A DNA stretch of 64,000 nt, from assembly GCA_964572155.1 (NCBI GenBank), contig CAZNDZ010000001.1:1146786-1210785 (forward strand). Reading direction: 5' to 3'. Below the pieces are notes generated by a model. The model was not told where the DNA came from. It searched no databases and was given only the letters and a program-made list of their open reading frames with translations. How positions within the stretch are numbered: position 1 is the stretch's first letter; each line of letters opens with the position of its first letter. The position numbers and the translations under genes were made by a program. The stretch is from an uncultured Planctomycetales bacterium (GTDB lineage: Bacteria > Omnitrophota > Gorgyraeia > Zapsychrales > Fredricksoniimonadaceae). Below are positions 4,144 to 54,401 of the stretch, piece after piece.

Positions 4144-5070
4144 TTATTCTTTAAATTGCAGTACAGGAAAGACGATGTTTTTTTCAGGATTATCAAATTC
4201 ATGCACGTTGGCATCAGGGTATTCTGAGAGAATCTCGTCGATGATCTCATCAACCAAATACCGCGGCACAGAGGCACCCGAACTTAAACCAATCTTTGTT
4301 TTGCCTTTGAGAAAACCCAAATTCAATTGCTTGGCATTATCAATGATATGGCTTTCAACGCCGCATTGCTCACCGGTCTCACGCAAGCGATTGCTGTTGG
4401 AAGAATGGGGTGAACCGCAGATGATGATGACATCGCAAAAAGAAGCTAATTCTTTAACGGCGTCTTGTCGATTTTGAGTGGCATAGCAAATATCTGAACG
4501 CAAGGGTGCTGTTAATTTGGGGAACTTGGCTTTTAATTTTTCGATAATGCCCTTGGTTTCATCAACCGATAGGGTTGTTTGGGTGATATAGGCGACATTT
4601 TTTTTAGGATCTAATTTTAATTTCTCAACGTCTTTTTCATTTTCAACAATATGTAATAAATCAGGGCGAACATAGCCAGATGTGCCGATTAGTTCTTGAT
4701 GACCCAAATGTCCGATTAAGACCGTATCAATGTCTTGCCCAGAAAATTTTACCGCTTCTTTATGAACCTTGGTAACTAAAGGACATGTAGCATCAACAAA
4801 TTTGAGTTTACGTTCGCGAGCTTTGGGGATGATTTCAGGGGGCACGCCATGTGCTGAGAAAATAATACGGCTGCCAATGGGGACTTCATCGAGATTCTCA
4901 ACAAAGACGACACCACGTTTTTTCATATCCTCGACAACAGCGGTGTTGTGCACGATGTCATGATAGACATATAAGGGCGTGCCGTAGGTATTTAAGGCAA
5001 GCTCTACAATGTCGATCGCACTGGCAACGCCAGCACAAAATCCTTGGGTTTTAGCGAGGTATATATCCAT
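4144..5070 (-). CDS. ispH: 4-hydroxy-3-methylbut-2-enyl diphosphate reductase
   Basis: IspH/LytB N-terminus MDIYLAKTQGFCAGV, conserved Cys and His (HNTAVVE, SAHGV) motifs, 308 aa. Confidence 0.9.
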   Translation of the reverse strand: MDIYLAKTQGFCAGVASAIDIVELALNTYGTPLYVYHDIVHNTAVVEDMKKRGVVFVENLDEVPIGSRIIFSAHGVPPEIIPKARERKLKFVDATCPLVTKVHKEAVKFSGQDIDTVLIGHLGHQELIGTSGYVRPDLLHIVENEKDVEKLKLDPKKNVAYITQTTLSVDETKGIIEKLKAKFPKLTAPLRSDICYATQNRQDAVKELASFCDVIIICGSPHSSNSNRLRETGEQCGVESHIIDNAKQLNLGFLKGKTKIGLSSGASVPRYLVDEIIDEILSEYPDANVHEFDNPEKNIVFPVLQFKE

Positions 5071-5150
5071 TATGTATTTGATTAATACGGGTTTATTTCC
5101 TATAATGTGGCTTCAATTATAACACTTTTAAAATTAGAGTAAAACACTTT
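5071..5150. promoter_or_regulatory. Divergent ispH/ispG intergenic promoter region, AT-rich and containing TATAAT at about 5101-5106.
   Basis: An 80-bp spacer between divergently oriented genes. The -10-like hexamer was read directly. Confidence 0.3.
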
Positions 5151-6365
5151 ATGCATCCAATAACCCGTCGAAAAACGCCCACAGTGACAATCGGCAACTT
5201 GAAGTTGGGCAGTGATTGCCCCATACGCATCCAGTCCATGACCGATACGCCAACGGCTGATGTCGAGGCCACCTATGCCCAAACCATGGCATTGATCGAG
5301 GCTGGTTCTGAATTAGTCCGATGGACGGTAAACGATCATGAGGCGGCCAAAGGTGCGGTTGAGGTGATCAAGCGCTTGCGCGCCAAAGGCATACAAACAC
5401 CCATCATTGGTGATTTTCATTTTAATGGTCATTTGATTCTAGCTAAAAATCCTGAAGCTGCAGCCTTGCTTGATAAATACCGTATTAACCCAGGTAATGT
5501 GGGTAAGGGAAAATTACACGACGATAATTTTGCGCAAATTGTTAACATTGCAATTGCCAATAAAAAAGCTATCCGTATTGGGGTTAATTGGGGATCGCTC
5601 GACCCTGAGCTGTTAACTGCATGCATGGATGCCAATGCAAAATTATCCACGCCTAAAGATTTTAGTTTTGTTACGCAAGAAGCCATGGTGCAAAGCGCGC
5701 TTCAAAGTGCTGCCTATGCCATGAAACTCGGGCAACCCAAAGAAAAGATTGTTCTAAGTGTTAAAATGTCGGTGTTGCAAGACATGGTGGCCGTTTATGA
5801 ACGTTTGGCCAAAGAATGTGATTATGCCCTACACTTAGGCTTGACTGAGGCGGGTGCAGATATCAAAGGCGCTGTTTCATCCGCTGCGGCATTATCGATT
5901 TTGATGCAGCAAGGCATTGGCGATACCATCCGTGTTTCTTTAACACCACAACCTAATGTTACGCGCGCGAAAGAAGTTGAAGTATGTAAAGAGATCTTGC
6001 AAGCCATGGGCTTTCGCTATTTTGCACCGTCGGTCACCAGTTGCCCAGGATGTGGCCGCACCAGCAGCAATTATTTTCAATACCTAGCTCAAGATATCAA
6101 TGCCCACATCAAATTAAAAATGCCGTTGTGGAAAAATAAATATAAGGGTGTCGAACAAATGAAGATTGCGGTCATGGGCTGTGTGGTTAATGGCCCAGGC
6201 GAAAGCCGTCATGCCGATATCGGTATCAGCTTACCAGGGGCCTCGGAACAACCCATTGCACCGGTTTATGTTGATGGCAAAGAGTTTAAGATTTTACGAG
6301 GTGAGAATATAAAGCAGGAGTTTATTGATATTTTAGAAAGTTATATCAATACAAGATATAAATAA
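5151..6365 (+). CDS. ispG: 4-hydroxy-3-methylbut-2-en-1-yl diphosphate synthase
   Basis: GcpE-family TIM-barrel N-terminus (TVTIGNLKLGSD.PIRIQSMT) and C-terminal 4Fe-4S cysteines (CPGCGRT...GCVVNGPGE). Confidence 0.9.
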   Translation: MHPITRRKTPTVTIGNLKLGSDCPIRIQSMTDTPTADVEATYAQTMALIEAGSELVRWTVNDHEAAKGAVEVIKRLRAKGIQTPIIGDFHFNGHLILAKNPEAAALLDKYRINPGNVGKGKLHDDNFAQIVNIAIANKKAIRIGVNWGSLDPELLTACMDANAKLSTPKDFSFVTQEAMVQSALQSAAYAMKLGQPKEKIVLSVKMSVLQDMVAVYERLAKECDYALHLGLTEAGADIKGAVSSAAALSILMQQGIGDTIRVSLTPQPNVTRAKEVEVCKEILQAMGFRYFAPSVTSCPGCGRTSSNYFQYLAQDINAHIKLKMPLWKNKYKGVEQMKIAVMGCVVNGPGESRHADIGISLPGASEQPIAPVYVDGKEFKILRGENIKQEFIDILESYINTRYK

Positions 6366-14956: not shown

Positions 14957-14991
14957 TTAGAATCTTCAAATAAAACACTAGGATTATGTAT

Positions 14992-15423
14992 ATGAAAACT
15001 TATTTGCCCAAAGTTGCTGAACTTAAAACAGAATGTTATTTGATCGACGCTACAGACAAGGTCTTAGGCCGTGTTGCAGCGAAAGCCGCGCATATTTTAC
15101 GTGGTAAACACAAACGCATTTACACACCATTTCTAGATACGGGCGACACCGTTGTTATCATCAACGCTGAAAAAGTCCGTGTCACAGGTAAGAAATTGAC
15201 AGATAAAATCCACAGCCGTTTTACCGGTTACCCAGGTGGTAAACGTGAAGTGGCATTAGGGGATATGTTACGTAAGAGCCCAGCAAAAGTTATGGAATTA
15301 GCCGTCACCCGTATGTTACCAAGTGGCGCATTAGCTTATAAGCAAGGCAGTAAATTACGCGTGTATGCCGGTGAATCTCATCCTCATGCCGCTCAAAAAC
15401 CAACAGTTTTAGAAATTAAATAA
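14992..15423 (+). CDS. rplM: 50S ribosomal protein L13. Start chosen at MKTYLP, because AGGA at 14980-14983 lies 8 nt upstream. The ATG at 14986 is only 2 nt from that SD.
   Basis: MKTYLPKVAELKTECYLIDA matches the L13 N-terminus MKTF.AKP..V.R.WYV.DA. Confidence 0.9.
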   Translation: MKTYLPKVAELKTECYLIDATDKVLGRVAAKAAHILRGKHKRIYTPFLDTGDTVVIINAEKVRVTGKKLTDKIHSRFTGYPGGKREVALGDMLRKSPAKVMELAVTRMLPSGALAYKQGSKLRVYAGESHPHAAQKPTVLEIK

Positions 15424-15441: not shown

Positions 15442-15837
15442 ATGGTTGAAGTAGTCAAATATGCAGGTACAGGTCGTCGTAAATCTTCCGTGGCGCGTGT
15501 TGTATTAAGCCCAGGGGAAGGTAAAATTTCTGTTAATAAACGTGAATTCGCGGATTATTTTCCACGCGAAACCGACCGACTATTAATCATGGTTCCTTTG
15601 AAATTAACTAATTTAGAAAATAAATTTGATATAGCCGTTCGTGTGACCGGTGGTGGTTCAACGGGTCAAGCCGGTGCTTTTAAAATGGGTTTATCCCGCG
15701 CCATCTTGGCATGCGATCCTAACACCAAGCCAGTGTTAAAGAAAGCTAGCTGCTTAACTAGAGATGACAGAATGAAAGAAAGAAAGAAACCTGGTCAGAA
15801 GGGGGCGCGTCGTAAGTTCCAATGGGTTAAGCGTTAA
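15442..15837 (+). CDS. rpsI: 30S ribosomal protein S9
   Basis: GTGRRKSSVARV N-terminus and basic C-terminus (RRKFQWVKR). AGGAG SD. Conserved rplM-rpsI gene order. Confidence 0.95.
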   Translation: MVEVVKYAGTGRRKSSVARVVLSPGEGKISVNKREFADYFPRETDRLLIMVPLKLTNLENKFDIAVRVTGGGSTGQAGAFKMGLSRAILACDPNTKPVLKKASCLTRDDRMKERKKPGQKGARRKFQWVKR

Positions 15838-26633: not shown

Positions 26634-27353
26634 ATGATTAAATTAGCTGTTTCAGGTTGTCAGGGACGCATGGGTCAACGCATCACCGCATTGGCTTTAG
26701 CGGATAAGGCGTTTAAAATTTCAGCGTTATTAGAAAATAAAAATCGTCCTGATGTTCCATTGCTCAGCAACCAAATCCCTGTCAATTTTGATCCTAATGC
26801 TTTAAAGGGAAGTAAGGTCTTAATTGAATTTACGTCGCCTGAAGCAACCATGGAGCATTTAAAGATTTGCCAAAAATATGGCGTTAATATGGTCATTGGC
26901 ACAACAGGTTTAACTAAGCCACAAATTGCCCATATTAAAAAGGCGTCATCAAAGATTGCCATCGTTTTTTCGTCGAACATGTCAGTTGGAGTTAACTTGG
27001 TTTTTGGCTTAATCAAAAGAGCTGCAGAGATCACTGGTAAGAATTACACCATGAATTTAACAGAAACGCATCACGTACATAAAAAAGATGCGCCGTCGGG
27101 TACAGCTAAGACCATGGCGGAAGTTGCCGAACAATATTCTAAAACCAAAGTTAAAAATATTGAGTCTTTAAGAGAAGGTGAAGTTATTGGAGATCACACG
27201 ATTACTTTTGAAAGTGGTGTTGATTTAATTTCCATTCATCATCATGCAAAGACGCGGGATATCTTTGCTGAAGGTTCACTCGTGGCTGCTAAGTTTTTAG
27301 GTAACAAGAAAAAAGGTTTGTATAACATGCAAGATGTATTAGGCATTAAATAA
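26634..27353 (+). CDS. dapB: 4-hydroxy-tetrahydrodipicolinate reductase
   Basis: KLAVSGCQGRMGQ N-terminus and the E.HH..K.D.PSGTA motif (ETHHVHKKDAPSGTA). Confidence 0.9.
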   Translation: MIKLAVSGCQGRMGQRITALALADKAFKISALLENKNRPDVPLLSNQIPVNFDPNALKGSKVLIEFTSPEATMEHLKICQKYGVNMVIGTTGLTKPQIAHIKKASSKIAIVFSSNMSVGVNLVFGLIKRAAEITGKNYTMNLTETHHVHKKDAPSGTAKTMAEVAEQYSKTKVKNIESLREGEVIGDHTITFESGVDLISIHHHAKTRDIFAEGSLVAAKFLGNKKKGLYNMQDVLGIK

Positions 27354-27364
27354 CAGGAGTTTAC

Positions 27365-28543
27365 ATGAGCGCTGAGACAGCATTTAAAATTGAATTTTCT
27401 GATCGTTTAAAATCATTGCCACCATATTTGTTCGTCGAGATTGATAAAGCCAAGCGTGCTGCGATGGCTCAAGGCCGTGATGTTATTAATTTAGGTGTGG
27501 GTGATCCAGATCAACGCACCCATCAGCCGATCATTGATGCGTTAAACAAAGCTTCTCAAGATGTGAACAATCATCATTATCCCTTTGATGCTGGCGTGCC
27601 TCAACTCCGAACTGAAATCGCCAAATGGTTTAAAGGACGTTTTGGTGTTGAGCTTGATCCAATGACAGAATTGTATCCGTTAATTGGTTCTAAAGAAGGT
27701 ATTGCTCATTTGCCTTTGGGTATCATTAATCCAGGCGATAAAGTCGTTTTGACTGAGCCTGCCTACCCAGCATACCAAGCAGCCGTCACCTTTGCCGGCG
27801 GGAAGATACAGTATTTGCCTTTAAAAGCAGGCAATGGTTTCTTACCACGCATTGAAGATATCGAAGCGCTTAAAGATGTCAAAGCCATCTTTGTTTGCTA
27901 TCCAAATAATCCAACAGCAGCGATTGCCGATAAGAAATTTTATCAAGAGTTGGTCAACGTTTGTAAGGCCAAAGGCATTATCATCGTCTCTGACCTTGCT
28001 TATTCTGAAGTTTATTATGATGGGATTAAGCCTCCAAGTATTTTAGAAATTGAAGGGGCGAAAGATATTGCCATTGAATTTCATTCATTTTCAAAAACAT
28101 ATTTTATGACAGGTTGGCGTTTAGGTTGGGCTTGTGGTAATCCAACACTTGTTGCAGCGCTCGCTAAAGTTAAATCCAATTGTGATTCCGGTGTTTTTAA
28201 TGCCATCCAATATGCAGGGATTGCGGCATTGAATATGGATCCCCGTGATATTGAAGATATGCGCGCCGAATATCAAATGCGTCGTGACGCGTTGATCAAT
28301 GGATTACGTGGCATTGGCTGGAAGATCGATCCTCCCAAAGCAGCCTTTTATGTTTGGGCTAAAATACCATCGAAGTTTGCTGATTCCATGGAATGCTGCA
28401 AGGCATTTTTAGATCAAGCGGATATCGTGGTGACCCCAGGGGTTGGTTTTGGTAAAGCGGGTGAAGGTTATGTGCGCATGGCACTGACATTGCCAGTTGA
28501 CCGTATCAACCAAGCCGTAAGCCGATTAGCCAAGATCTTGTAG
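27365..28543 (+). CDS. dapL: LL-diaminopimelate aminotransferase (class I/II aminotransferase). Assigned as DapL from its position in the dapA-dapB-(dapL)-dapF-lysA set.
   Basis: PLP-Lys motif SFSKTYFMTGWRLGW, LPPYLF N-terminus, 392 aa, in a lysine operon with no dapD/dapC/dapE. Confidence 0.6.
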   Translation: MSAETAFKIEFSDRLKSLPPYLFVEIDKAKRAAMAQGRDVINLGVGDPDQRTHQPIIDALNKASQDVNNHHYPFDAGVPQLRTEIAKWFKGRFGVELDPMTELYPLIGSKEGIAHLPLGIINPGDKVVLTEPAYPAYQAAVTFAGGKIQYLPLKAGNGFLPRIEDIEALKDVKAIFVCYPNNPTAAIADKKFYQELVNVCKAKGIIIVSDLAYSEVYYDGIKPPSILEIEGAKDIAIEFHSFSKTYFMTGWRLGWACGNPTLVAALAKVKSNCDSGVFNAIQYAGIAALNMDPRDIEDMRAEYQMRRDALINGLRGIGWKIDPPKAAFYVWAKIPSKFADSMECCKAFLDQADIVVTPGVGFGKAGEGYVRMALTLPVDRINQAVSRLAKIL

Positions 28544-28548
28544 GACAT

Positions 28549-28968
28549 ATGCCCATTGCTTATTTAAGCTTAGGTTCTAATTTAGGTGATCGCAGTGATT
28601 ATATTCAACGTGCCTTGCTTCTCTTAGGAGAGCAAGGCATTGTTGTTAAAACGTCCTCCATCATTGAAACAGAACCGGTGGGTGGGCCTAAACAAGGCCA
28701 ATATTTAAATGCCGTAGTCAAATATGAAACTACATTATCGGTCGAAGAACTATTTTTGCTTACTTCAAATATTGAGAAACAATTAGGTCGAATCCGCAAG
28801 TTAAAGAATGGCCCGCGCGTCATTGATATTGATATTTTATTGTATGAAGATGTAAAATTAATCACCAAAGATTTAATCGTACCGCATCCGCGCATGTTTG
28901 AACGAGATTTTGTCATGCGCCCACTTAAACAAATAGAGCCAGCATTATGCGCGTCATTCGCAATATAA
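28549..28968 (+). CDS. folK: Hydroxymethyldihydropterin pyrophosphokinase (HPPK)
   Basis: AYLSLGSNLGDR N-terminus, ETEPVGGP, IDIDILLY motifs. 139 aa. Confidence 0.9.
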   Translation: MPIAYLSLGSNLGDRSDYIQRALLLLGEQGIVVKTSSIIETEPVGGPKQGQYLNAVVKYETTLSVEELFLLTSNIEKQLGRIRKLKNGPRVIDIDILLYEDVKLITKDLIVPHPRMFERDFVMRPLKQIEPALCASFAI

Positions 28969-29816
28969 AAACATTGCAAACCACACTTGCAAAACTTAGG
29001 GCCGAAGGCAAATCAATTAGCTTTGTTCCGACGATGGGGTATTTTCATGAGGGGCATTTGTCTTTAATGCGCCAGGCGAAAAAGCAGCATGATATTTGTG
29101 TGGTGAGCGTTTATGTAAACCCTAAACAATTTGGTCCCAAGGAAGATTTAAGCCGTTATCCTCGTGACTTTAAGCGAGACTCGTCGCTGATGGTAAAAGA
29201 AAATGTTGACATTTGTTTTTTTGCGTCTGATAATGACATTTATCCGAATGGTTATTTGACATACATCGATGTAAACAAAATTTCTGATGTGCTTTGCGGC
29301 GCTTATCGTCCCAATCATTTTCAAGGCGTAGCCACCATTGTAGCAAAATTATTGAATATGGTCGGACCCAGCACCATGTATTTGGGGGCCAAAGATGCCC
29401 AACAAGTGGTTGTTTTAAAGCGCATGGTTGTGGATTTAAACTTTCCGGTTAAGGTGGTTGTTGGAGCAACAATCAGGGAAGCCGATGGTTTGGCATTAAG
29501 TAGCCGCAATGTTTTTTTAAGTTCTTTAGAACGTGCGCAAGCCGTGGTTATAAGCAAAGCCTTGTTTGCTGCTAAAGAGAGCATTGCAAAGGGAGAGCGC
29601 AAAGCCAAGAACGTTATCGCCATCATGCAACACATGATCAGTAAAGCATCATTGGCTAAGATTCAATACATCGCATGTGTGGATGCGCAACAATTAACCC
29701 CTTTAAGAACGTTGCAAGGGGATGTGTTATTCGCAGTAGCTGTATATTTTGGTAAAACCCGTTTGATTGATAATGTTGTTGTAAAAATTAATGGCTCAAA
29801 AAAAATCAAAAATTAG
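28947..29816 (+). CDS. panC: Pantoate-beta-alanine ligase
   Basis: PTMGYFHEGHLSLM HIGH-type motif, 289 aa. Confidence 0.9.
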   Translation: MRVIRNIKTLQTTLAKLRAEGKSISFVPTMGYFHEGHLSLMRQAKKQHDICVVSVYVNPKQFGPKEDLSRYPRDFKRDSSLMVKENVDICFFASDNDIYPNGYLTYIDVNKISDVLCGAYRPNHFQGVATIVAKLLNMVGPSTMYLGAKDAQQVVVLKRMVVDLNFPVKVVVGATIREADGLALSSRNVFLSSLERAQAVVISKALFAAKESIAKGERKAKNVIAIMQHMISKASLAKIQYIACVDAQQLTPLRTLQGDVLFAVAVYFGKTRLIDNVVVKINGSKKIKN

Positions 29817-30618
29817 GGTTGGCATACTAGGATGTGGGGCCATTGGTTCTCGCATCGCACGCAGCATCAAAACAGAGTGTGATCAATACGCTACGGTCAC
29901 AGCTTTGTTTGACATTAACCCTGTCAAAGCAGAAAATCTTGCCCGGCATCTTCCTCACAAAAATATCATTAAACTTAAGTACAAAGAACTCTTAGATAGT
30001 TGCGACATCATTGTCGAAGCTGTAAATGCGCCAGATACGTATCAGCTTGTAAAGCAAGCATTGATGGCTAAAAAAGATGTTTTGGTGATGAGTGTTGGTA
30101 AATTTATCGATAGTGATGCTATCATCAAGTTAGCTCACAAACATGGCAGTCTTTTATTAATACCGTCGGGAGCGATTGCTGGTATTGATGCCATCAAGGC
30201 GGCAGCGCTAGGAAAAATTCATCAAATTGTTTTAACCACACGTAAGCCTATCTATGGTTTTGCCGACAATGCCTATGTACAGGCCCGTCGGATAAATTTG
30301 TCACAAATAAAAAAAGAAACAATTTTATTTGACGGGAACGTCAAAGAGGCTGTACATTGTTTTCCACAGAACATTAACGTGGCGGCGACGATCGCGTTGG
30401 CATCTGGTTGTAAAGATAAGTTAAGGATTCGCATTAGCACGTCGCCAGAGTATAAAGTTAATTCTCATGAAATTGAAGTGGTGGGTGAATTTGGAAGGTT
30501 AACAACAAAAACAGAAAATGTTGTTTGTCCAGATAATCCTAAAACAAGTTATCTGGCGGTATTATCCGCTATCGTTACGTTAAAGCAGTATTTTCAGGGT
30601 GTGAAAATCGGCACCTAA
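29791..30618 (+). CDS. nadX: L-aspartate dehydrogenase-like protein (NadX family)
   Basis: VGILGCGAIG Rossmann N-terminus, PSGAIAGIDA and HEIEVVGEFG motifs, as in Thermotoga-type aspartate dehydrogenase. 275 aa. Confidence 0.55.
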   Translation: MAQKKSKIRVGILGCGAIGSRIARSIKTECDQYATVTALFDINPVKAENLARHLPHKNIIKLKYKELLDSCDIIVEAVNAPDTYQLVKQALMAKKDVLVMSVGKFIDSDAIIKLAHKHGSLLLIPSGAIAGIDAIKAAALGKIHQIVLTTRKPIYGFADNAYVQARRINLSQIKKETILFDGNVKEAVHCFPQNINVAATIALASGCKDKLRIRISTSPEYKVNSHEIEVVGEFGRLTTKTENVVCPDNPKTSYLAVLSAIVTLKQYFQGVKIGT

Positions 30619-30640
30619 CAACCAAGAAAGGGGTGGTAGT

Positions 30641-30940
30641 ATGGCTTCAAAAAAAGTCGCTAAAGTTGGGGTAAAGAAAGAAAAAGGTTATCTTTATTTC
30701 GTAGACAAACAAGGTGACATCTCTGCTGCTAAGATGGCTCGTGGGGATAAAAAAGGTGGATCTCCTAAAAAAGTCGCTAAAGTTGGTATCAAACGTGAAG
30801 AAGGTTACTTATACTTCATCGATAAACAAGGCGATATCTCTGCCGCTAAGATGGTTCGCGGTGGCACCAAGAAAAAAGCTAAATCTGCTGCTAAAAAGCC
30901 AGCTAAAAAAGCTGCAAAGAAAACAGCAAAACGTAAATAA
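30641..30940 (+). CDS. Small lysine-rich protein of 99 aa: two tandem 32-aa repeats (KKVAKVG.K.E.GYLYF.DKQGDISAAKM.RG) plus a KKAAKK histone-H1/Hc1-like tail.
   Basis: Good SD (AAGGGGTGG). Strong terminator immediately downstream. The repeat copies differ mostly at synonymous sites. Confidence 0.65.
   Translation: MASKKVAKVGVKKEKGYLYFVDKQGDISAAKMARGDKKGGSPKKVAKVGIKREEGYLYFIDKQGDISAAKMVRGGTKKKAKSAAKKPAKKAAKKTAKRK
30650..30862 (+). repeat. Intragenic tandem duplication: a 96-bp unit at 30650-30745 and again at 30767-30862, about 80% nt identity, separated by a 21-bp linker.
   Basis: Direct comparison of the two DNA segments and their translations. Confidence 0.7.
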
Positions 30941-30958
30941 GTCTACGTTTTTATTGTT

Positions 30959-30999
30959 CAACAACCCCTGTATTTTACTATACAGGGGTTGTTTTTTTT
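30959..30999 (+). terminator. Strong rho-independent terminator: 13-bp perfect stem AACAACCCCTGTA / TACAGGGGTTGTT, 8-nt loop, T8 tract.
   Basis: Read directly. A TATAAT at 31003-31008 follows and may be the uvrA -10. Confidence 0.8.
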
Positions 31000-31016
31000 G
31001 TATATAATAGCGCCTT

Positions 31017-33815
31017 ATGAATCAGTCCGATGCTATCATTATCCGTGGCGCCAAAGAACATAATTTAAAGAACATTGACCTAACGATCCCACGCAATCAA
31101 TTTGTGGTCGTCACAGGTTTAAGTGGTTCTGGAAAATCCTCCTTAGCGTTTGATACCATTTATGCAGAAGGTCAGCGCCGTTATGTCGAGAGTTTGTCAG
31201 CATATGCGCGGCAATTTTTGGATCAAATGCAAAAGCCGCATGTTGAACATATCGAGGGCTTGTCTCCAACCATATCGATTGAACAAAAGACAGTTAGCCG
31301 TAATCCACGTTCTACCGTTGCCACTCAAACAGAAATTTATGACTATCTGCGTTTGTTATTCGCGCGTGTAGGTATTCCGCATTGCTACCAATGTGGCAAA
31401 CGCATTGAACAGCAAAGCGCTCAAGAAATCGTTGGTCATATCTTGGCGTTGCCAGAAGGCAGCAAGATCAATATTTTAGCCCCAATGGTGCGTGGGCGTA
31501 AGGGTGAGTACCGCGACATCGGCGCCCAAGTGACTAAGGCGGGTTTTGCACGTTTGCGTGTTGATGGCAAGATGTTTGAAGCCTCTGACGATATCAAGCT
31601 TGATAAATTCAAAGTCCATCACATTGAAGCGGTGGTTGATCGCTTGAGCATTCGCCAAGATATTAAGAAACGTTTATTTGATTCTGTTGAGACTGCCCTT
31701 AAAATTGGCGAAGGCATTTTGATGGTGGATTTTAATGGGAGTGCGCCAGATAAAACATTTAGTGAAAAATATGCCTGTGTTGATTGTGGCACATCCTTAA
31801 GTGAAATTGAACCACGCATATTTTCATTTAATTCGCCTTATGGAGCTTGCCCTCAATGCAATGGCCTTGGCACCATGATGGAGATTGATCCTGCCGCGAT
31901 TGTGCCAGATGATACTAAGCCTTGGACGACGGCGATTGTGCCTTGGAAAAAGGGGCAAGGCGGTTACATGATTTACTACCGCGCGGTATTGCGTGAAATT
32001 GCCGGCCGTTTTCGCATTGATTCCAAGTTGCCATTTAAAGATTTAGATAAAAAATTTAAACATGTCGTCTTGCATGGGTCAGAAGACATTGAAGTTTGGG
32101 GTCGTCCTTTCGAAGGGGTTGTAAAATATTTAGAACGTTTATTTAGAGAAACGGACAGTGATTGGTTAAAAGAAGAAATTTCTACCTATATGTCCGAATC
32201 AGCATGTTCATTATGTGCGGGTAAACGTTTAAAGAAAGAATCTTTAGCTATTACTGTGGGAGATCAAAACCTTGCCGATGTGGTGGAGCTTTCTATTAAA
32301 GAATGTAAGCATTTCTTTAACGAGCTTACCTTAAGTAAAGACAAAAAGAAAATTAGCGAAGAGATTTTGAAAGAAATCAATCGACGCTTAGATTTTTGTA
32401 TCAATGTAGGTTTGGAATATTTAACGCTTGATCGTCGTAGTTCAACCTTGTCCGGCGGCGAGGCTGAACGTATCCGTTTGGCAACTCAAGTAGGTTCAGG
32501 GTTAGTTGGCGTTATCTATGTTTTAGATGAGCCAAGTATTGGTTTGCATCAACGTGATAATGATCGATTATTGTCAACCTTACATGCCTTGAGAGATCTA
32601 GGCAACACCTTGATCGTTGTTGAACATGACGAAGACACCATCCGGCGTGCAGATTATGTCATTGATCTAGGCCCTGGGGCTGGTGAAGGTGGTGGCGAGG
32701 TCTTATATGCAGGTGATGTCAAAGGCATCCTCAAATGCAAGAAATCCCTAACGGGGCAATATTTAAGTGGCGAATATAAAATACCTGTCCCTGCAAAGAG
32801 ACGTGCAGCCATTAAAGATCAATATATAAAAATTATAGGCGCTAGCGAACACAACTTAAAAAATATAGATGTGCAAATTCCTCTAGGAACGTTTACCTGC
32901 ATTACTGGCGTATCTGGGTCGGGTAAATCAACCTTGGTTGAAGACATTTTATTTAAAGCCCTATCGAATAAAGTCATGGGGACCAAGGCAAAAGCAGGTG
33001 CTCATAAAAAGATCACAGGTACGGAGCATATTGATAAAGTCATTGTCGTCGACCAATCACCGATCGGTCGTACGCCACGCTCTAATCCAGCAACGTATAC
33101 AGGGGTGTTTTCTGATATCCGTGATATCTTTGCACAATTACCTCAGTCAAAAATGCGTGGGTATAAGCCAGGTCGTTTTAGTTTTAATGTCAAGGGTGGA
33201 CGTTGTGAGGCGTGCGGTGGTGATGGGATTAAGAAGATTGAAATGCATTTCTTACCTGACGTGTACGTGGAATGTGAAATTTGCCATGGTAAACGTTTTA
33301 CGGATCAAACTTTGGAAGTTGAATTTAAAGGCAAGAACATCGCCCAAATTTTAGACCTGAGTGTAGAGGAAGCCTTAGGTGTTTTTGATAGTGTGCCACG
33401 CATAAAGAATGTGTTACAAACATTACACGAAGTTGGTTTAGGTTATATTTGCTTAGGCCAAAGCGCGACAACCTTGTCGGGTGGTGAAGCGCAGCGAGTT
33501 AAATTAGCAAGTGAGCTTTGTAAACCAGCCACAGGAAAAACATTTTATATTTTGGATGAACCCACAACGGGCTTACATTTTGCCGACGTTGATAAATTGT
33601 TGCAAGTGATGCAACGCCTCGTTGATCGAGGCAATACCGTTTTGGTCATTGAACATAATTTGGACATTGTTAAATCAGCAGACTACATCATTGATTTAGG
33701 GCCTGACGGTGGTGACAAGGGCGGACAATTGATTGCCAGCGGTACGCCAGAAGCCATCATGCAGGTGACACATTCTCATACAGGAAAATACTTAAAGAGA
33801 TTTTTAGAAAAATGA
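31017..33815 (+). CDS. uvrA: Excinuclease ABC subunit A
   Basis: Two ABC modules ([18 protein letters not shown]), zinc-finger cysteines, LSGGE signatures, 932 aa. Confidence 0.95.
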
Positions 33816-36253
33816 AAATAAAAATATTCTTAACGGCATTGTTTTGTTCGTTTTCATTAATAGTCTTTGCACAAAGTGATCCAGATGAATTAATCACGAC
33901 GGCACAAAGAGCATTTGATGATGGCTTTCATGATGTGGCTATTAAATATTTAGAGGAATTTGTACCAGCTTATCCTCAAAATCCCAAAATATCTCAAGCG
34001 AAGGTATTGCTTGGGCAATGTTACTTTTTAAAAGGTAATTATGCAAAAGCCATGGAAATGTTCGAACAATTAGCAAATCAAAAAGAAAATAAAGACATGG
34101 TTTTGTTTTGGACGGCAGAGACGCAATTAAAATTATCGAACTTTCCAAGAGCTCAAGAGCTTTACCAAGATTTGCTTAAAAGTTTTACTAACTCTGTTTA
34201 TGTTCCTCAGGCTTTGTATTCTTTAGGTTGGTCGTATTTTGATCAAAAGCAGTATGCCAGCGCTAAAACCATGTTCGCTAAATTAACAGCCCAATTTCCT
34301 AAGCATCAATTAAGCGAAGATGCTTTGGCAAAATCTGCGGAATGCGATTACAACTTAGGCAATTTTGCAGATGCCATTAAGGCGCTCGAAAATTACCAAC
34401 AAAGCTATCCAACTAGTTCACGCTTAGGGTCAATCCGATTAAATATCGCTGATGCTTATTATTACATGGATGATTATGCGCATGCCATGGATTATTATGA
34501 TCAATCAGCAAAAACAGTTACGAGTGATCCTGCAACGGTGCATGCTGCCAACGTCGGTAAAATCTGGTGTGCCCTAAAACGTAAAATGTATGAACAAGCT
34601 CAAAAGTATATTAAAGAAGCATCTGATTTTGCAAAATCTAAAAATTTAAGCACTGAAAACATTTTGTTAGCTTCTGGGCAAATGTATTTTGAAAAAGGGG
34701 AGATGGATCAAGCGGTTAATGCGTATAGTGATTTGATCCGTGCTTACCCCACAGGTGATTATAGGTTAGAGGCATATTTAGGGCGAGCCAATGCGCTCTA
34801 TGAAGATAAAAAATACAATAAGGCTCAAGTAGATTTTCAATTTGTTATCGATCATCATCAAGAAGCGGACGTAGATTTGGTCGATAAAGCCAATTTTGGT
34901 TTGGGGTGGGTTTTGGTAAAAGCGGGCGATGTAACGGCAGGTATTCGCTGTTTTCAATCGGTGTATGAACGCACCAACAACGATATGATAAAAAATAATG
35001 CCTTAATTCAAATGGCAGATGCATATCAAGAGGGCGGTCGATTTAATGATGCCATTGGCATTTATGAGAAGATCAATAAAACAGGCTCAGCCAATGGTTT
35101 GGAAGATTATATTCAATACCGTCTAGGGGTTGCATTATTAAAAGCTGAAAAATTTGAATTGGCTCAATCGGGTTTTGACACCTTGGTCAATAAATATCCT
35201 AATAGCCGATACTTAGAAGACGTAAATTACTACCTCGGTGTGATTCAATTTAAAAGTAATAATTGGAACAAAGCTGCGCAGTACATGGATGCATTCCTCA
35301 AGGCCTTAACACATCCAAGTGAGTTTGCACCAGAAGCTAATTATATCTTAGCGTTAGCATATTTAAATTTAAAGCAAAGTGATGAAGCATTAAAAATATT
35401 TCAAAAAATTCTGCGCTTATATCCCGACGATGAGGATGTGGCTAAAAATTCTGATATTGGTATTGCCAAGTGTCAATTTGAATTAGGGCAGATTAAAGAC
35501 GCTATTAAGCGATTTAAATTGATCATTTTTAAGTACCCCAAATCAGATGTAGAGCAGGAAGCTTTATTATGGTTAGCACAAGATGCTATGAAAAATTTTC
35601 AATACGCGCAAGCCATTGATTATTACCATACTTTGCTTGATCGCAATCTTGATCCATCTCATCAGGACCAGATTAATTATGAGTTGGGTCAAGCCTATGA
35701 AGTTCAAGGCGCATTAGATGAGGCATTAGCGCAATATAAATCAGTAAGTGATAAGGATGAAGTTTTAGCATCGAAAGTAAAACTAGCCATTGCAGGCATA
35801 TTATCTAAAGAGTTTGATCCACAAAAAGCTATTACAGCGTATGCGAACATTGCTAGCACCAGCCCTGATTATGCGCGTGATGCTTATTTAAAGATGGCGC
35901 AATTATATCGCAATGCACAAAATTATGAGCAAGAGATAACGGTTTATGAAAAAGCGTTGAAATGCGATCAGGGTAAATCTGTAGTAACCAATGTAGAGCT
36001 TTTATTTAGTTTAGGGGATGCCTATGAATCATTAGACCGCATCGAAGAAGCCGTAGATTATTATTTAAAAATTCCAACCCAATATCATGATCAGACCACA
36101 TGGGTGGTTAAGGCTTATTTACGGGTTGCAAAAATTTTTGAAGATCGCAAGGATTGGGAAGGGGCTCGTGTAACATATCAGAAAATTGTGCAGTTAAAAG
36201 TTGATGAATCAAAATTTGCTTTAGAACGATTAGATTTGTTAAAAAAGAAATGA
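33812..36253 (+). CDS. Large secreted or lipoprotein-like tetratricopeptide-repeat protein of 813 aa. Signal peptide [20 protein letters not shown].
   Basis: Many TPR-like 34-aa A/Y/L-rich repeats across the protein. ATGA overlap with the uvrA stop. Confidence 0.6.
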
Positions 36254-45244: not shown

Positions 45245-45456
45245 GGCCAAAGCCCAGCGTAGCCAAAAGTAAAACATTACTGGCGAAGCTGGGTTGCAGA
45301 GGGGCAAAAAATATGTTATATTCGTTGCATAGTAGAAGTAATGATGATATAAAAACATTGTATAAAGGTAAACTATCCGCAAGGGTGGGGCACAAAGCTA
45401 TAGGGCCTGTTGATATAGGACAGGCAGCCAGTTACCAATGGAAAGCTGTAATGTGC

Positions 45457-45545: not shown

Positions 45546-45992
45546 ATGAAATTAAGTAATAAACGCAATCAAGGGTTTACACTCATAGAAATCATCATCG
45601 TTATTGTCATCTTAGGTATCTTAGCAGCTATTGCCTTGCCAAAATTGACAGAAAACATTGACCGTGGTCGCGCAGCAGAAGCCTTCTCAATCGGTTCCTC
45701 TGTAGCTAAAGCATTTGATCGTTGTTTATCTGTTGAAACAGGTGGTGCAACGCCAAGTTCAACAAATGTGGGTAATTGTAATTCATTTGCTAAAATTAAT
45801 ATGGCAACACCTCCAGCCACTAATTTCACGTATTCTTTAGCTAGCTCTGGTACAACCTTGACATTCGGTGCTGTTGGCGCTTTCACTGGTGCTGCAGCAG
45901 CGGATTCAATCACATTTACATTCGTGGGTGATACAGGTGTTACAACAAGAACCTGCGGTACAGCAGGTAAGTTTGACAAAATGTGTAAATAG
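45546..45992 (+). CDS. pilA: Major type IV pilin / pseudopilin with a class III signal peptide (MKLSNKRNQG|FTLIEIIIVIVILGILAA)
   Basis: Prepilin peptidase site G|FTLIE with Glu+5, hydrophobic N-terminal helix, Ser/Thr/Gly-rich C-terminus. AGGAG SD. Confidence 0.85.
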   Translation: MKLSNKRNQGFTLIEIIIVIVILGILAAIALPKLTENIDRGRAAEAFSIGSSVAKAFDRCLSVETGGATPSSTNVGNCNSFAKINMATPPATNFTYSLASSGTTLTFGAVGAFTGAAAADSITFTFVGDTGVTTRTCGTAGKFDKMCK

Positions 45993-46079: not shown

Positions 46080-46505
46080 ATGTCTAAAAAGGGTTTTACG
46101 ATCATTGAAGTCATTATCGTTGTTGTCATGTTGGGCATCTTGGCCGCTGTTGCTATACCAAAAATCCTTGCCCCTAATGAAATAGTGATTTCATCTGAAG
46201 GGCAACATACGCTAACTGTTTTGTTAAGTGCTCAAAAAAGATATAAGTTAGAGAATAGTGCGTACACCACAACATTAGACAACCTTGATGTTTCCATAAC
46301 ACCAAAGTATTTTGACACGGTCACGGCATTAGATGGTTCGAGTGCAAAGACAGAAGTGGCGTCGCTTGCACGGATAAGTAATTTGGTATACACGCTGTCT
46401 ATTGGTGCGGAAGGTGCCAATGCAGGGATTATCTATTGTTCTGGTGCGGGTTGTACCTCTATTAAATGTACTAAAGGTGCGGGGAGCAATCAATGCAATC
46501 TATAA
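46080..46505 (+). CDS. Pilin-like protein 2 (MSKKG|FTIIEVIIVVVMLGILAAVAIPKI)
   Basis: Prepilin N-terminal motif and GAGGAG SD. 141 aa. Confidence 0.8.
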   Translation: MSKKGFTIIEVIIVVVMLGILAAVAIPKILAPNEIVISSEGQHTLTVLLSAQKRYKLENSAYTTTLDNLDVSITPKYFDTVTALDGSSAKTEVASLARISNLVYTLSIGAEGANAGIIYCSGAGCTSIKCTKGAGSNQCNL

Positions 46506-46918
46506 AAGCTTTTACAATGATTGAGCTGATCATGGTGGTTGTCATTATAGGTATGATGGCGCTGTTTGCTGTGCCAAATTATAATAAGTCTGTTGGTAAA
46601 ACATACGAGAAAGCGGGATCCAATAATCTATTAATCATGTATTCGGCGCAGAAGATTAAAAAGATTGGCGGGGAAAATTATCAGGCATGTAACAGTACAA
46701 GTACCTGTAATACGAATTTAAATTTGAGTCTTATCGCAAACGGTGTTGATTATTCCTGCACCACAACGGGTGGAGGAACGCCAACGGGCTTTTATTGTTA
46801 TGGGAATCGCTCGGATAATTCATTTAAGTTAAAAATAACAGAAACAGGTGGCACACCATGTTGTTGTACGGCAAATACGTGTCCATCAATCACCACAACT
46901 TGTGCAAGTTGTCCGTAG
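46493..46918 (+). CDS. Pilin-like protein 3 with a cysteine-rich C-terminus (MQSIKA|FTMIELIMVVVIIGMMALFAVP)
   Basis: Prepilin motif with Glu+5. 9 Cys in the last 90 aa, including CCC. 141 aa. Confidence 0.7.
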   Translation: MQSIKAFTMIELIMVVVIIGMMALFAVPNYNKSVGKTYEKAGSNNLLIMYSAQKIKKIGGENYQACNSTSTCNTNLNLSLIANGVDYSCTTTGGGTPTGFYCYGNRSDNSFKLKITETGGTPCCCTANTCPSITTTCASCP

Positions 46919-54324: not shown

Positions 54325-54401
54325 GGGTCGGTAGCTCAGTTTGGTAGAGCGCGTCGTTCGCAATGACGAGGCCAAGGGTTCGATCCCCTTCCGATCCACC
54401 A
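54325..54401 (+). tRNA. tRNA-Ala, anticodon CGC, with encoded CCA
   Basis: Manual cloverleaf fold: acceptor GGGTCGG/CCGATCC with the G3:U70 Ala identity pair, D-arm GCTC/GAGC, anticodon stem CGTCG/TGACG, loop TTCGCAA, T-arm AAGGG-TTCGATC-CCCTT, discriminator A. Confidence 0.9.

Follow-up and report, generated by a model that had tools for sequence, protein, structure and literature searches.

The window analysed here, 64,000 nucleotides from an uncultured bacterium of the phylum Omnitrophota (GenBank assembly GCA_964572155.1, contig CAZNDZ010000001.1, positions 1,146,786 to 1,210,785 of the forward strand), carries at 30641..30940 (+ strand, stop codon included) an ATG-initiated gene for a protein of 99 amino acids, 28 of which are Lys, 15 Ala and 4 Arg. 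What could so small and basic a protein, encoded just ahead of uvrA, be doing in the cell? The original prediction, made from the letters of the DNA and their open reading frames, proposed a nucleoid-associated or DNA-binding protein of an uncharacterised family, built from a duplicated 32-residue module and a histone-H1-like tail. We report that the target gene is real, found across the phylum and very strongly conserved, and we lean, with a little more confidence than doubt, towards reading its product as an abundant nucleoid-associated protein of a new family that would bind DNA without sequence specificity. We infer the DNA binding, the lack of specificity, the abundance and the nucleoid role from indirect signs.

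Bacterial chromatin is usually described through HU/IHF, Fis, H-NS-like proteins, Dps and, recently, bacterial histones. To our knowledge, new architectural chromatin proteins are rare, and each of them changes the way the genome biology of its lineage is read. Small, basic chromatin proteins ending in Lys-rich tails are a functional kind already known; what is new here is the family and its predicted fold. The 99-residue protein displays the traits of nucleoid-associated proteins, being small, basic and, to judge from its codon bias and flanking signals, highly expressed.

Two copies of one module under purifying selection

Module 1 (amino acids 4-35, 30650..30745, + strand) comprises a strand, a Lys-rich loop and a GYLYFVDKQGDISAAKM β-hairpin, and is delimited by the repeat register, by the substitution pattern and by the structural model described below. 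On the same strand follow a Gly/Lys linker, DKKGGSP (amino acids 36-42, 30746..30766), module 2 (amino acids 43-74, 30767..30862), likewise supported by the modelled strands, and a disordered Lys/Ala-rich C-terminal tail (amino acids 76-99, 30866..30937). The internal repeat is offset by 39 residues, with 27 of 32 positions identical between residues 4-35, KKVAKVGVKKEKGYLYFVDKQGDISAAKMARG, and residues 43-74, KKVAKVGIKREEGYLYFIDKQGDISAAKMVRG. The open reading frame and its repeat, two 32-residue copies and a Lys-rich tail, are exactly as first transcribed, and the gene is single-copy in the window. The layout nevertheless needed amending, since the linker, seven residues here and 3-11 family-wide, has to be added and the long Lys/Ala tail turned out to be clade-specific rather than a feature of the family. 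The tail reads TKKKAKSAAKKPAKKAAKKTAKRK, i.e. KKAKSAAKKPAKKAAKK, with 12 Lys, 1 Arg, 7 Ala and 1 Pro in 24 residues (13 of them basic).

At the DNA level the two module copies are identical at 75 of 96 positions (78%), close to the 80% estimated earlier. Sixteen codons differ between them, 11 synonymously and five through conservative replacements (V/I, K/R, K/E, V/I and A/V), and the Nei-Gojobori method gives 0.107 nonsynonymous (dN) and 1.58 synonymous (dS) substitutions per site, i.e. a dN/dS of 0.07. Because synonymous sites are near saturation, the similarity of the modules stems from selection on both halves and not from recent gene conversion; both copies are under purifying selection, as had been claimed. 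In most orthologues both modules bear a Cys at symmetric places (D[IV]SCAKM), where the window protein has Ala (amino acids 29 and 68, codons 30725-30727 and 30842-30844, within ISAAKM in both modules). Paired Cys residues, which could form a disulfide, a metal site or a redox switch, are thus common and not essential.

Conservation and distribution of the family

With each GTDB species represented by one genome, the best 80 loci of the scan were retained. By their titles, 47 of these belong to Omnitrophota, 27 to the placeholder 'uncultured Planctomycetales/-ia', three to Deltaproteobacteria, two to a 'bacterium' and one to Woesearchaeota. Most share the order dapB, aminotransferase, folK, panC, aspartate dehydrogenase, target, uvrA and a TPR protein gene (813 amino acids), a syntenic block that spans 26634-36253 in the window and is kept even where the enzymes fall to 35-50% identity. 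The aspartate dehydrogenase gene lies upstream of the target in 76 of the 80 loci and uvrA downstream in 57, many being on truncated contigs. Within this block the small protein stands above its neighbours: its identity to the window copy has a median of 82% (72-98% over 78 loci), as against 73% for UvrA, 70% for the aminotransferase, 60% for DapB, 56% for aspartate dehydrogenase, 54% for FolK and 51% for PanC, and it is the best-conserved protein in 27 of the 30 loci carrying all seven genes.

Among 5.8 billion proteins searched, 4,858 homologous clusters (90% identity) were recovered at E <= 1e-3. The best 120 of these clusters contain proteins of 79-107 amino acids, 67-100% identical and devoid of Pfam domains, and every named member among them is a 'hypothetical protein' from metagenome-assembled genomes (MAGs) of Candidatus Omnitrophica/Omnitrophota. 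When a profile of the core was run with HMMER against 1.84 billion 50%-identity representatives, 974 clusters were found at E <= 1e-3 and 308 at E <= 1e-10. The distribution across genomes, counted with two Omnitrophota-type peptide patterns on one genome per GTDB species, amounts to 487 species genomes that encode a relative, mostly Omnitrophota but also archaea. GTDB R232 lists about 705-714 Omnitrophota species representatives (bioRxiv 10.64898/2026.06.07.730766). As MAGs are incomplete and the scan is limited to its patterns, the gene is probably near-universal in the phylum.

The usual plan of the family is a protein of 70-110 amino acids with two modules, a linker of 3-11 residues and a basic tail of 0-37 residues. 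Both modules obey a single consensus, (E/K)KVAKVGIKKEKGYLYF(V/I)DKQGDVSRAKM(A/V)RG, and in distant members the identities of module 1 to module 1, module 2 to module 2 and module 1 to module 2 are all ~0.43-0.47. Equal identities and one consensus mean that the two halves are held to a common requirement, which suggests that together they make a pseudo-symmetric domain. The median isoelectric point of the family is 10.3 (10.1 for the core alone), and its tails contain 64% K+R and 3% D+E. Since tail length differs among orthologues, from GGKKKKK to more than 50 residues according to the clade, the conserved functional unit is the double β-module and not the tail.

Members were also found in an Endomicrobium MAG, in a Woesearchaeota MAG and on contigs that are archaeal by their neighbouring genes (aEF1A, Rpp14, Kae1, Hef, histone and RNase J), and some relatives are multi-repeat proteins, with six modules in P0123 and at least five in P0121. 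A mainly viral family was ruled out: only 11 IMG/VR contigs carry a relative, and tblastn found none in 50,697 GenBank phage records.

One archaeal copy deserves separate mention. On contig JABMQF010000141.1 ('Candidatus Woesearchaeota archaeon', locus L057), positions 4998-5414 encode an Omnitrophota-type protein of 138 amino acids, 78% identical and ending in an (AVKKK)n tail. This contig is genuinely archaeal, with an MCM P-loop and lid, an SSB-like OB fold and a Mre11-like phosphoesterase, and it lacks the Omnitrophota synteny; the copy points to inter-domain gene transfer or else to a chimeric assembly. A distinct subfamily (P0181, P0209, P0237 and P0264) joins the module pair to a conserved C-terminal domain of ~90 residues (KPxVKYLVY ... 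VNxVPKKY[CQ]) for which no Pfam or PDB match was found, and the P0237 gene lies directly downstream of an archaeal gene for the helicase-nuclease Hef.

Predicted structure and searches against known families

With an alignment of 14 sequences, AlphaFold2 gave an uninformative model (predicted local distance difference test, pLDDT, of 54); with 60 diverse sequences, after addition of 50%-identity representatives, the model became usable. Its mean pLDDT is 86, with residues 1-72 at 91-97 and a disordered tail at ~65 (63-66 over amino acids 76-99). Six strands are predicted, three per module (3-7, 17-21 and 27-31; 43-46, 56-60 and 66-70), and the core has no helices; the core is thus confidently predicted to be all-β and the tail to be disordered. 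Foldseek, which struggles with small β proteins, found no significant match to the model in the PDB (best E = 0.45, TM score <= 0.30) or in BFVD (best E = 0.7).

Sequence searches led to the same picture. The window protein has no meaningful match in Pfam (E <= 10), NCBIfam or PADLOC, and two family profiles (A1 and A2) found nothing significant among PDB sequences; PHROGs gave only a weak match to phrog_9154, of unknown function (E = 7.8e-5). Profile and structure searches of the module hence recover no known family or fold, named members are 'hypothetical', and the suspicion that the family was uncharacterised proved right: both the protein family and the predicted fold are undescribed in every resource searched here. 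The literature on Omnitrophota (the Velamenicoccus proteome included), DPANN archaea and nucleoid-associated proteins, searched together with the motif strings, yielded nothing on this protein, and the supplements of PMC12583861 held no entry for uvrA or aspartate dehydrogenase by which the orthologue might be placed.

Several look-alikes were rejected. The NCBIfam match to BaiB (E = 2e-4; 20 bits, where the cutoff is 650) reflects the generic 'DGYLYF' hairpin of AMP-binding enzymes, Pfam at E <= 1 returned only scattered hairpin look-alikes among the 60 diverse members (DotY in 9, DUF5050 in 8 and Proteasome in 5), and the name '20S proteasome alpha/beta subunit' given by JGI to P0219 is an artefact of the GYLYF hairpin. 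In P0235 the sequence switches at GFLYFIGR into what appears by eye to be the C-terminal part of an AMP-binding enzyme, probably through chimeric assembly. Sub-threshold resemblances in the PDB concern the YWTD blades of LRP6 (E = 0.02, no single stretch passing) and choline-binding and glucan-binding repeats, and Choline_bind_1 matched one of the 60 members (E = 0.029); these repeat resemblances come down to a generic G-aromatic-L-Y-aromatic-x-D β-hairpin.

Known nucleic-acid-binding families were looked for by name. No ribosomal-protein, KOW, cold-shock domain (CSD) or S1 profile matched the window protein in Pfam or NCBIfam, or the 60 members in Pfam at E <= 1, and against ribosome chains Foldseek gave only E > 1.8 and TM <= 0.23. 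A ribosomal-protein or KOW identity, which the original prediction had named as evidence against itself, was therefore not found, and the open reading frame is a real gene, 72-98% identical at 78 loci. The histone-H1-like character of the tail holds as a description of composition, Lys/Ala-rich and disordered, but not as kinship: the linker histone H1/H5 profile (PF00538) matched neither the window protein (E <= 10) nor the 60 members (E <= 1), no Pfam or NCBIfam match to Hc1 or AlgP was obtained, the 24 residues of the tail hold no regular tandem KPAA unit, and tail length is variable. The HU/IHF profile (PF00216) matched neither the window protein nor the 60 members, and tblastn searches with HupA of E. 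coli and Hbsu of B. subtilis detected no homologue in the window or the loci, an absence that is uninformative. Sul7d and Cren7 gave no Pfam match and were absent among the Foldseek matches in the PDB.

Domain partners and genomic neighbours of the relatives

The domain architecture of the relatives is, in our view, the strongest functional clue, and it would point toward DNA. The module pair recurs with a coiled coil and an HNH nuclease in a family of proteins (P0171 and P0278-P0284) that are 41-53% identical over their full length, and sister nucleases with a nearly identical HNH domain carry an FtsK-gamma winged-helix domain (PF09397) in the same N-terminal slot, so that the pair sits in the slot of a known double-stranded DNA (dsDNA)-binding domain. 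Elsewhere the pair precedes a McrA-like type IV restriction HNH domain (P0269, E = 1e-20), follows ParB_N and HTH_ParB and is itself followed by a basic tail (P0260), or is joined in P0157 from Endomicrobium to a region that matches the candidate defence family PDC-S18 and looks by eye like a PD-(D/E)xK nuclease. In P0267, a HIT domain is joined to the pair and a basic tail in an aprataxin-like layout. Further fusions, to zinc ribbons, GAF, Prok-RING, transmembrane anchors and OmpA, show the pair to be a general-purpose module.

Genes for DNA transactions often adjoin the family in independent lineages: in Omnitrophota the neighbour is uvrA, in two archaeal contexts it is Hef, and in others it is RecG together with GreA, or holB; gyrB/gyrA lie 3 kb from the gene of one relative. 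In the eight contexts inspected, the setting was never a ribosomal-protein operon.

Signals of high expression

A Shine-Dalgarno sequence, GAAAGGGGTGG (~30626..30636, + strand), read directly from the DNA, ends 4-5 nt before the ATG, and at essentially all of the 77 orthologous loci the start codon has an equivalent motif, AAGGAGGTGA or GGGGGTGA, ahead of it. Downstream of the gene, an intrinsic terminator (30960..31001, + strand) consists of a hairpin (30960-30993; GC-rich stem of 14 bp, loop of 6 nt) and a T8 run after it; its folding energy of -22.6 kcal/mol (z = -6.35) was reached by none of 200 shuffled sequences, and a comparable hairpin with a T-rich tail occurs within 110 nt in 52 of the 77 loci (median -22 kcal/mol). 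The strong ribosome-binding site and strong terminator noted earlier are hence both real.

When the L13 and S9 genes of the window (14986-15423 and 15442-15837) served as the sole source of codon weights, the target ranked first among 52 window genes for likeness to these two (z = 3.6). GCT accounts for 12 of its 15 Ala codons (background 0.26, p = 2e-5), and C is preferred over T at 10 of 15 NNY codons (background 0.25, p = 7e-4). Codon bias, ribosome-binding site and terminator together indicate a gene that is apparently highly expressed.

A candidate chromatin protein and its alternatives

The mechanism that we propose would start from the two near-identical 32-residue β-modules folding together into one compact all-β domain. 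This double-β core would contact nucleic acid, most likely dsDNA, without sequence specificity, and the disordered poly-Lys/Ala tail would add charge neutralisation, leading to DNA compaction or bridging to a degree that depends on the clade. The protein would then be a candidate nucleoid-associated (chromatin) protein of Omnitrophota, from a domain family that also occurs in DPANN-type archaea and other uncultured bacteria. The idea of a DNA-binding, nucleoid-associated protein, as first put forward, gains from the fusions to HNH, McrA-like and ParB domains, from the codon bias and from the conservation, all of which are indirect; the choice of DNA over RNA is likewise a deduction.

A number of points weigh against this proposal. 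The exposed aromatic residues of the β-hairpin (GYLYF) would equally suit single-stranded DNA or RNA, and since the predicted fold is unmatched, structure allows no transfer of function. Other fusion partners, such as zinc ribbons, GAF, Prok-RING, transmembrane anchors and OmpA, are not DNA-specific, and the pattern of repair and replication neighbours is suggestive and was noticed post hoc. One member from Woesearchaeota is encoded 2 kb away from a gene for a histone, so that the protein is not simply a replacement for histone or HU. No proteomic or transcriptomic record of the protein was found in the literature, and no convincing sigma-70 site was found upstream of the target, where the gap is 22 nt. 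The aligned upstream region is coding sequence of the aspartate dehydrogenase gene, which makes its conservation uninformative on a promoter; transcription may start inside or upstream of that preceding gene.

Among the other explanations, the least improbable is that of a basic protein bound to RNA or to the ribosome, either a lineage-specific ribosomal protein or an RNA chaperone, in which GYLYF would stack on bases and the tail would bind rRNA or mRNA. Small size, strong basicity, top conservation, ribosomal-protein-like codons and the strong Shine-Dalgarno sequence and terminator would all fit it, and, by eye only, the KGYLYF-turn-strand pattern is reminiscent of the RNP1/RNP2 hairpin in cold-shock domains. 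We nonetheless consider it unlikely, because ribosomal, KOW, CSD and S1 profiles and PDB ribosome chains remain without a match, the inspected contexts never include a ribosomal-protein operon, and the fusion partners are DNA enzymes (HNH, McrA-like and ParB), the pair even replacing FtsK-gamma. Another candidate role, in place of that of a general chromatin protein, is that of a dedicated accessory of DNA repair, a sensor of damage or structure or a protector of DNA that would work with UvrA in bacteria and elsewhere with Hef, RecG or Mre11-type enzymes. The position immediately upstream of uvrA in 57 of the 80 Omnitrophota loci speaks for such a role, as do the adjacency to Hef in two archaeal lineages, in differing orientations, the places beside RecG and GreA and beside holB, and the Mre11-like, MCM and SSB genes on the L057 contig. 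Yet the whole block is syntenic in Omnitrophota, so that adjacency to uvrA may be inherited gene order; a strong terminator separates the two genes, some contexts hold no repair gene, and a codon bias of high expression would be unusual for a repair accessory factor, all of which makes this role rather improbable.

A different kind of explanation would see in the protein an oligomerising two-repeat β-hairpin, for example three chains closing into a six-bladed propeller-like ring in the manner of two-blade lectins, that binds a polyanion other than nucleic acid or a component of the envelope. It draws on the sub-threshold likeness to YWTD (LRP6, E = 0.02), choline- and glucan-binding repeats and DUF5050, on the multi-repeat relatives P0123 and P0121, and on membrane-anchored and OmpA-fused forms. 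We regard it as very unlikely: every repeat match is sub-threshold and reducible to a generic hairpin, three strands are predicted per module rather than four, the fusions to nucleases and to ParB would go without explanation, and the extreme positive charge argues against an extracellular lectin, as do the transmembrane fusions, which should face the cytoplasm by the positive-inside rule. As for a chance open reading frame or low-complexity artefact, small size and Lys-rich composition are all that could suggest it, and the data refute it to the point of leaving it practically no weight, with 4,858 clusters, 72-98% identity where flanking genes drop to 35-60%, a dN/dS of 0.07, a conserved Shine-Dalgarno sequence and terminator, and a confident fold.

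Returning to the preferred reading of a nucleoid-associated protein, a broader version of it can be put forward only tentatively, and we hold it as possible but on balance doubtful. In this version the double β-module would be a previously unrecognised nucleic-acid-binding fold, and the protein would be the principal chromatin protein of Omnitrophota, of a class unrelated to HU, histones, Alba, Sul7d and Cren7. It would have been exchanged between ultra-small bacteria and DPANN archaea, and its fold would have been reused for DNA targeting by HNH, McrA-like and ParB enzymes.

Comparison with known systems and significance

If the inferred DNA binding holds, the functional class that the protein would resemble is that of Sul7d (Sso7d/Sac7d) and Cren7 of Crenarchaeota, which are likewise very basic proteins of 60-100 amino acids with all-β monomeric cores, restricted in lineage and expressed, as is known or presumed, at high levels. 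Sul7d and Cren7 are single SH3-like barrels, whereas the window protein has a duplicated double module and a disordered basic tail, and its family occurs in both bacteria and archaea. Basic tails rich in Lys, Ala and Pro are found in the C-terminal domain of eukaryotic H1, chlamydial Hc1, Pseudomonas AlgP and actinobacterial HupB/Hlp. Similar (A/P)KK(A)AKK arrays also occur in relatives P0164, P0177, P0204, P0217 and P0257; in contrast to the winged helix of H1 and to the HU fold, however, the core here is all-β, and the tail is dispensable, many orthologues ending in GGKKKKK.

The HNH nucleases with FtsK-gamma (PF09397) share with the module-pair nucleases an N-terminal domain, a coiled-coil linker and a near-identical HNH domain, but FtsK-gamma is helical and sequence-specific (KOPS), and is unrelated to the module pair in fold and sequence. 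With YWTD (LDL-receptor class B) and choline- or glucan-binding repeats, the common points are the hairpin motif G-[YFW]-L-Y-[FYW]-x-D-x-x-G and a period of ~40 amino acids; those proteins have six or more repeats as against two here, where the protein is highly basic, DNA-enzyme fusions occur and the likeness stays at E >= 0.02.

The gene is present in most of the Omnitrophota species genomes scanned and exceeds UvrA in conservation, and yet it lies outside curated family libraries and the PDB. Were DNA binding true, the fold would be a new one among those that bind DNA, the protein would offer both a marker of and an experimental handle on a phylum of uncultured, nano-sized bacteria that depend on hosts, and bacteria and DPANN archaea would have exchanged a chromatin protein. 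Were RNA or ribosome binding true instead, the protein would be a phylum-specific component of translation, which would likewise be new.

Neighbouring genes and other features of the window

The gene upstream of the target (29791..30618, + strand) encodes aspartate dehydrogenase (Asp_DH_C, E = 1e-28), and its stop codon lies 22 nt before the target start. Downstream, uvrA (31017..33815, + strand) begins at 31017, beyond the terminator, which bears out the placement of the target directly upstream of it. A sigma-70-like site at 30979-31008 (+ strand; TATACA, 18 nt, TATAAT; matching at 10 of 12 positions) shares sequence with the terminator, namely its descending arm and T-run, and stops 9 nt short of the uvrA start codon; as a possible uvrA promoter it would leave almost no leader.

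Farther downstream, a c-di-GMP-I riboswitch (RF01051) was detected at 45357-45439 (+ strand; 59.3 bits, E = 4.5e-9), ~100 nt upstream of prepilin-type genes. Three such open reading frames follow (45546-45992, 46080-46505 and 46493-46918), with N_methyl detected in the first (E = 1.9e-10) and recognised by eye in the other two; in codon usage, the first of these pilin genes comes second in the window for likeness to ribosomal-protein genes. The sole tRNA gene of the window is tRNA-Ala(CGC) at 54325-54401 (+ strand).

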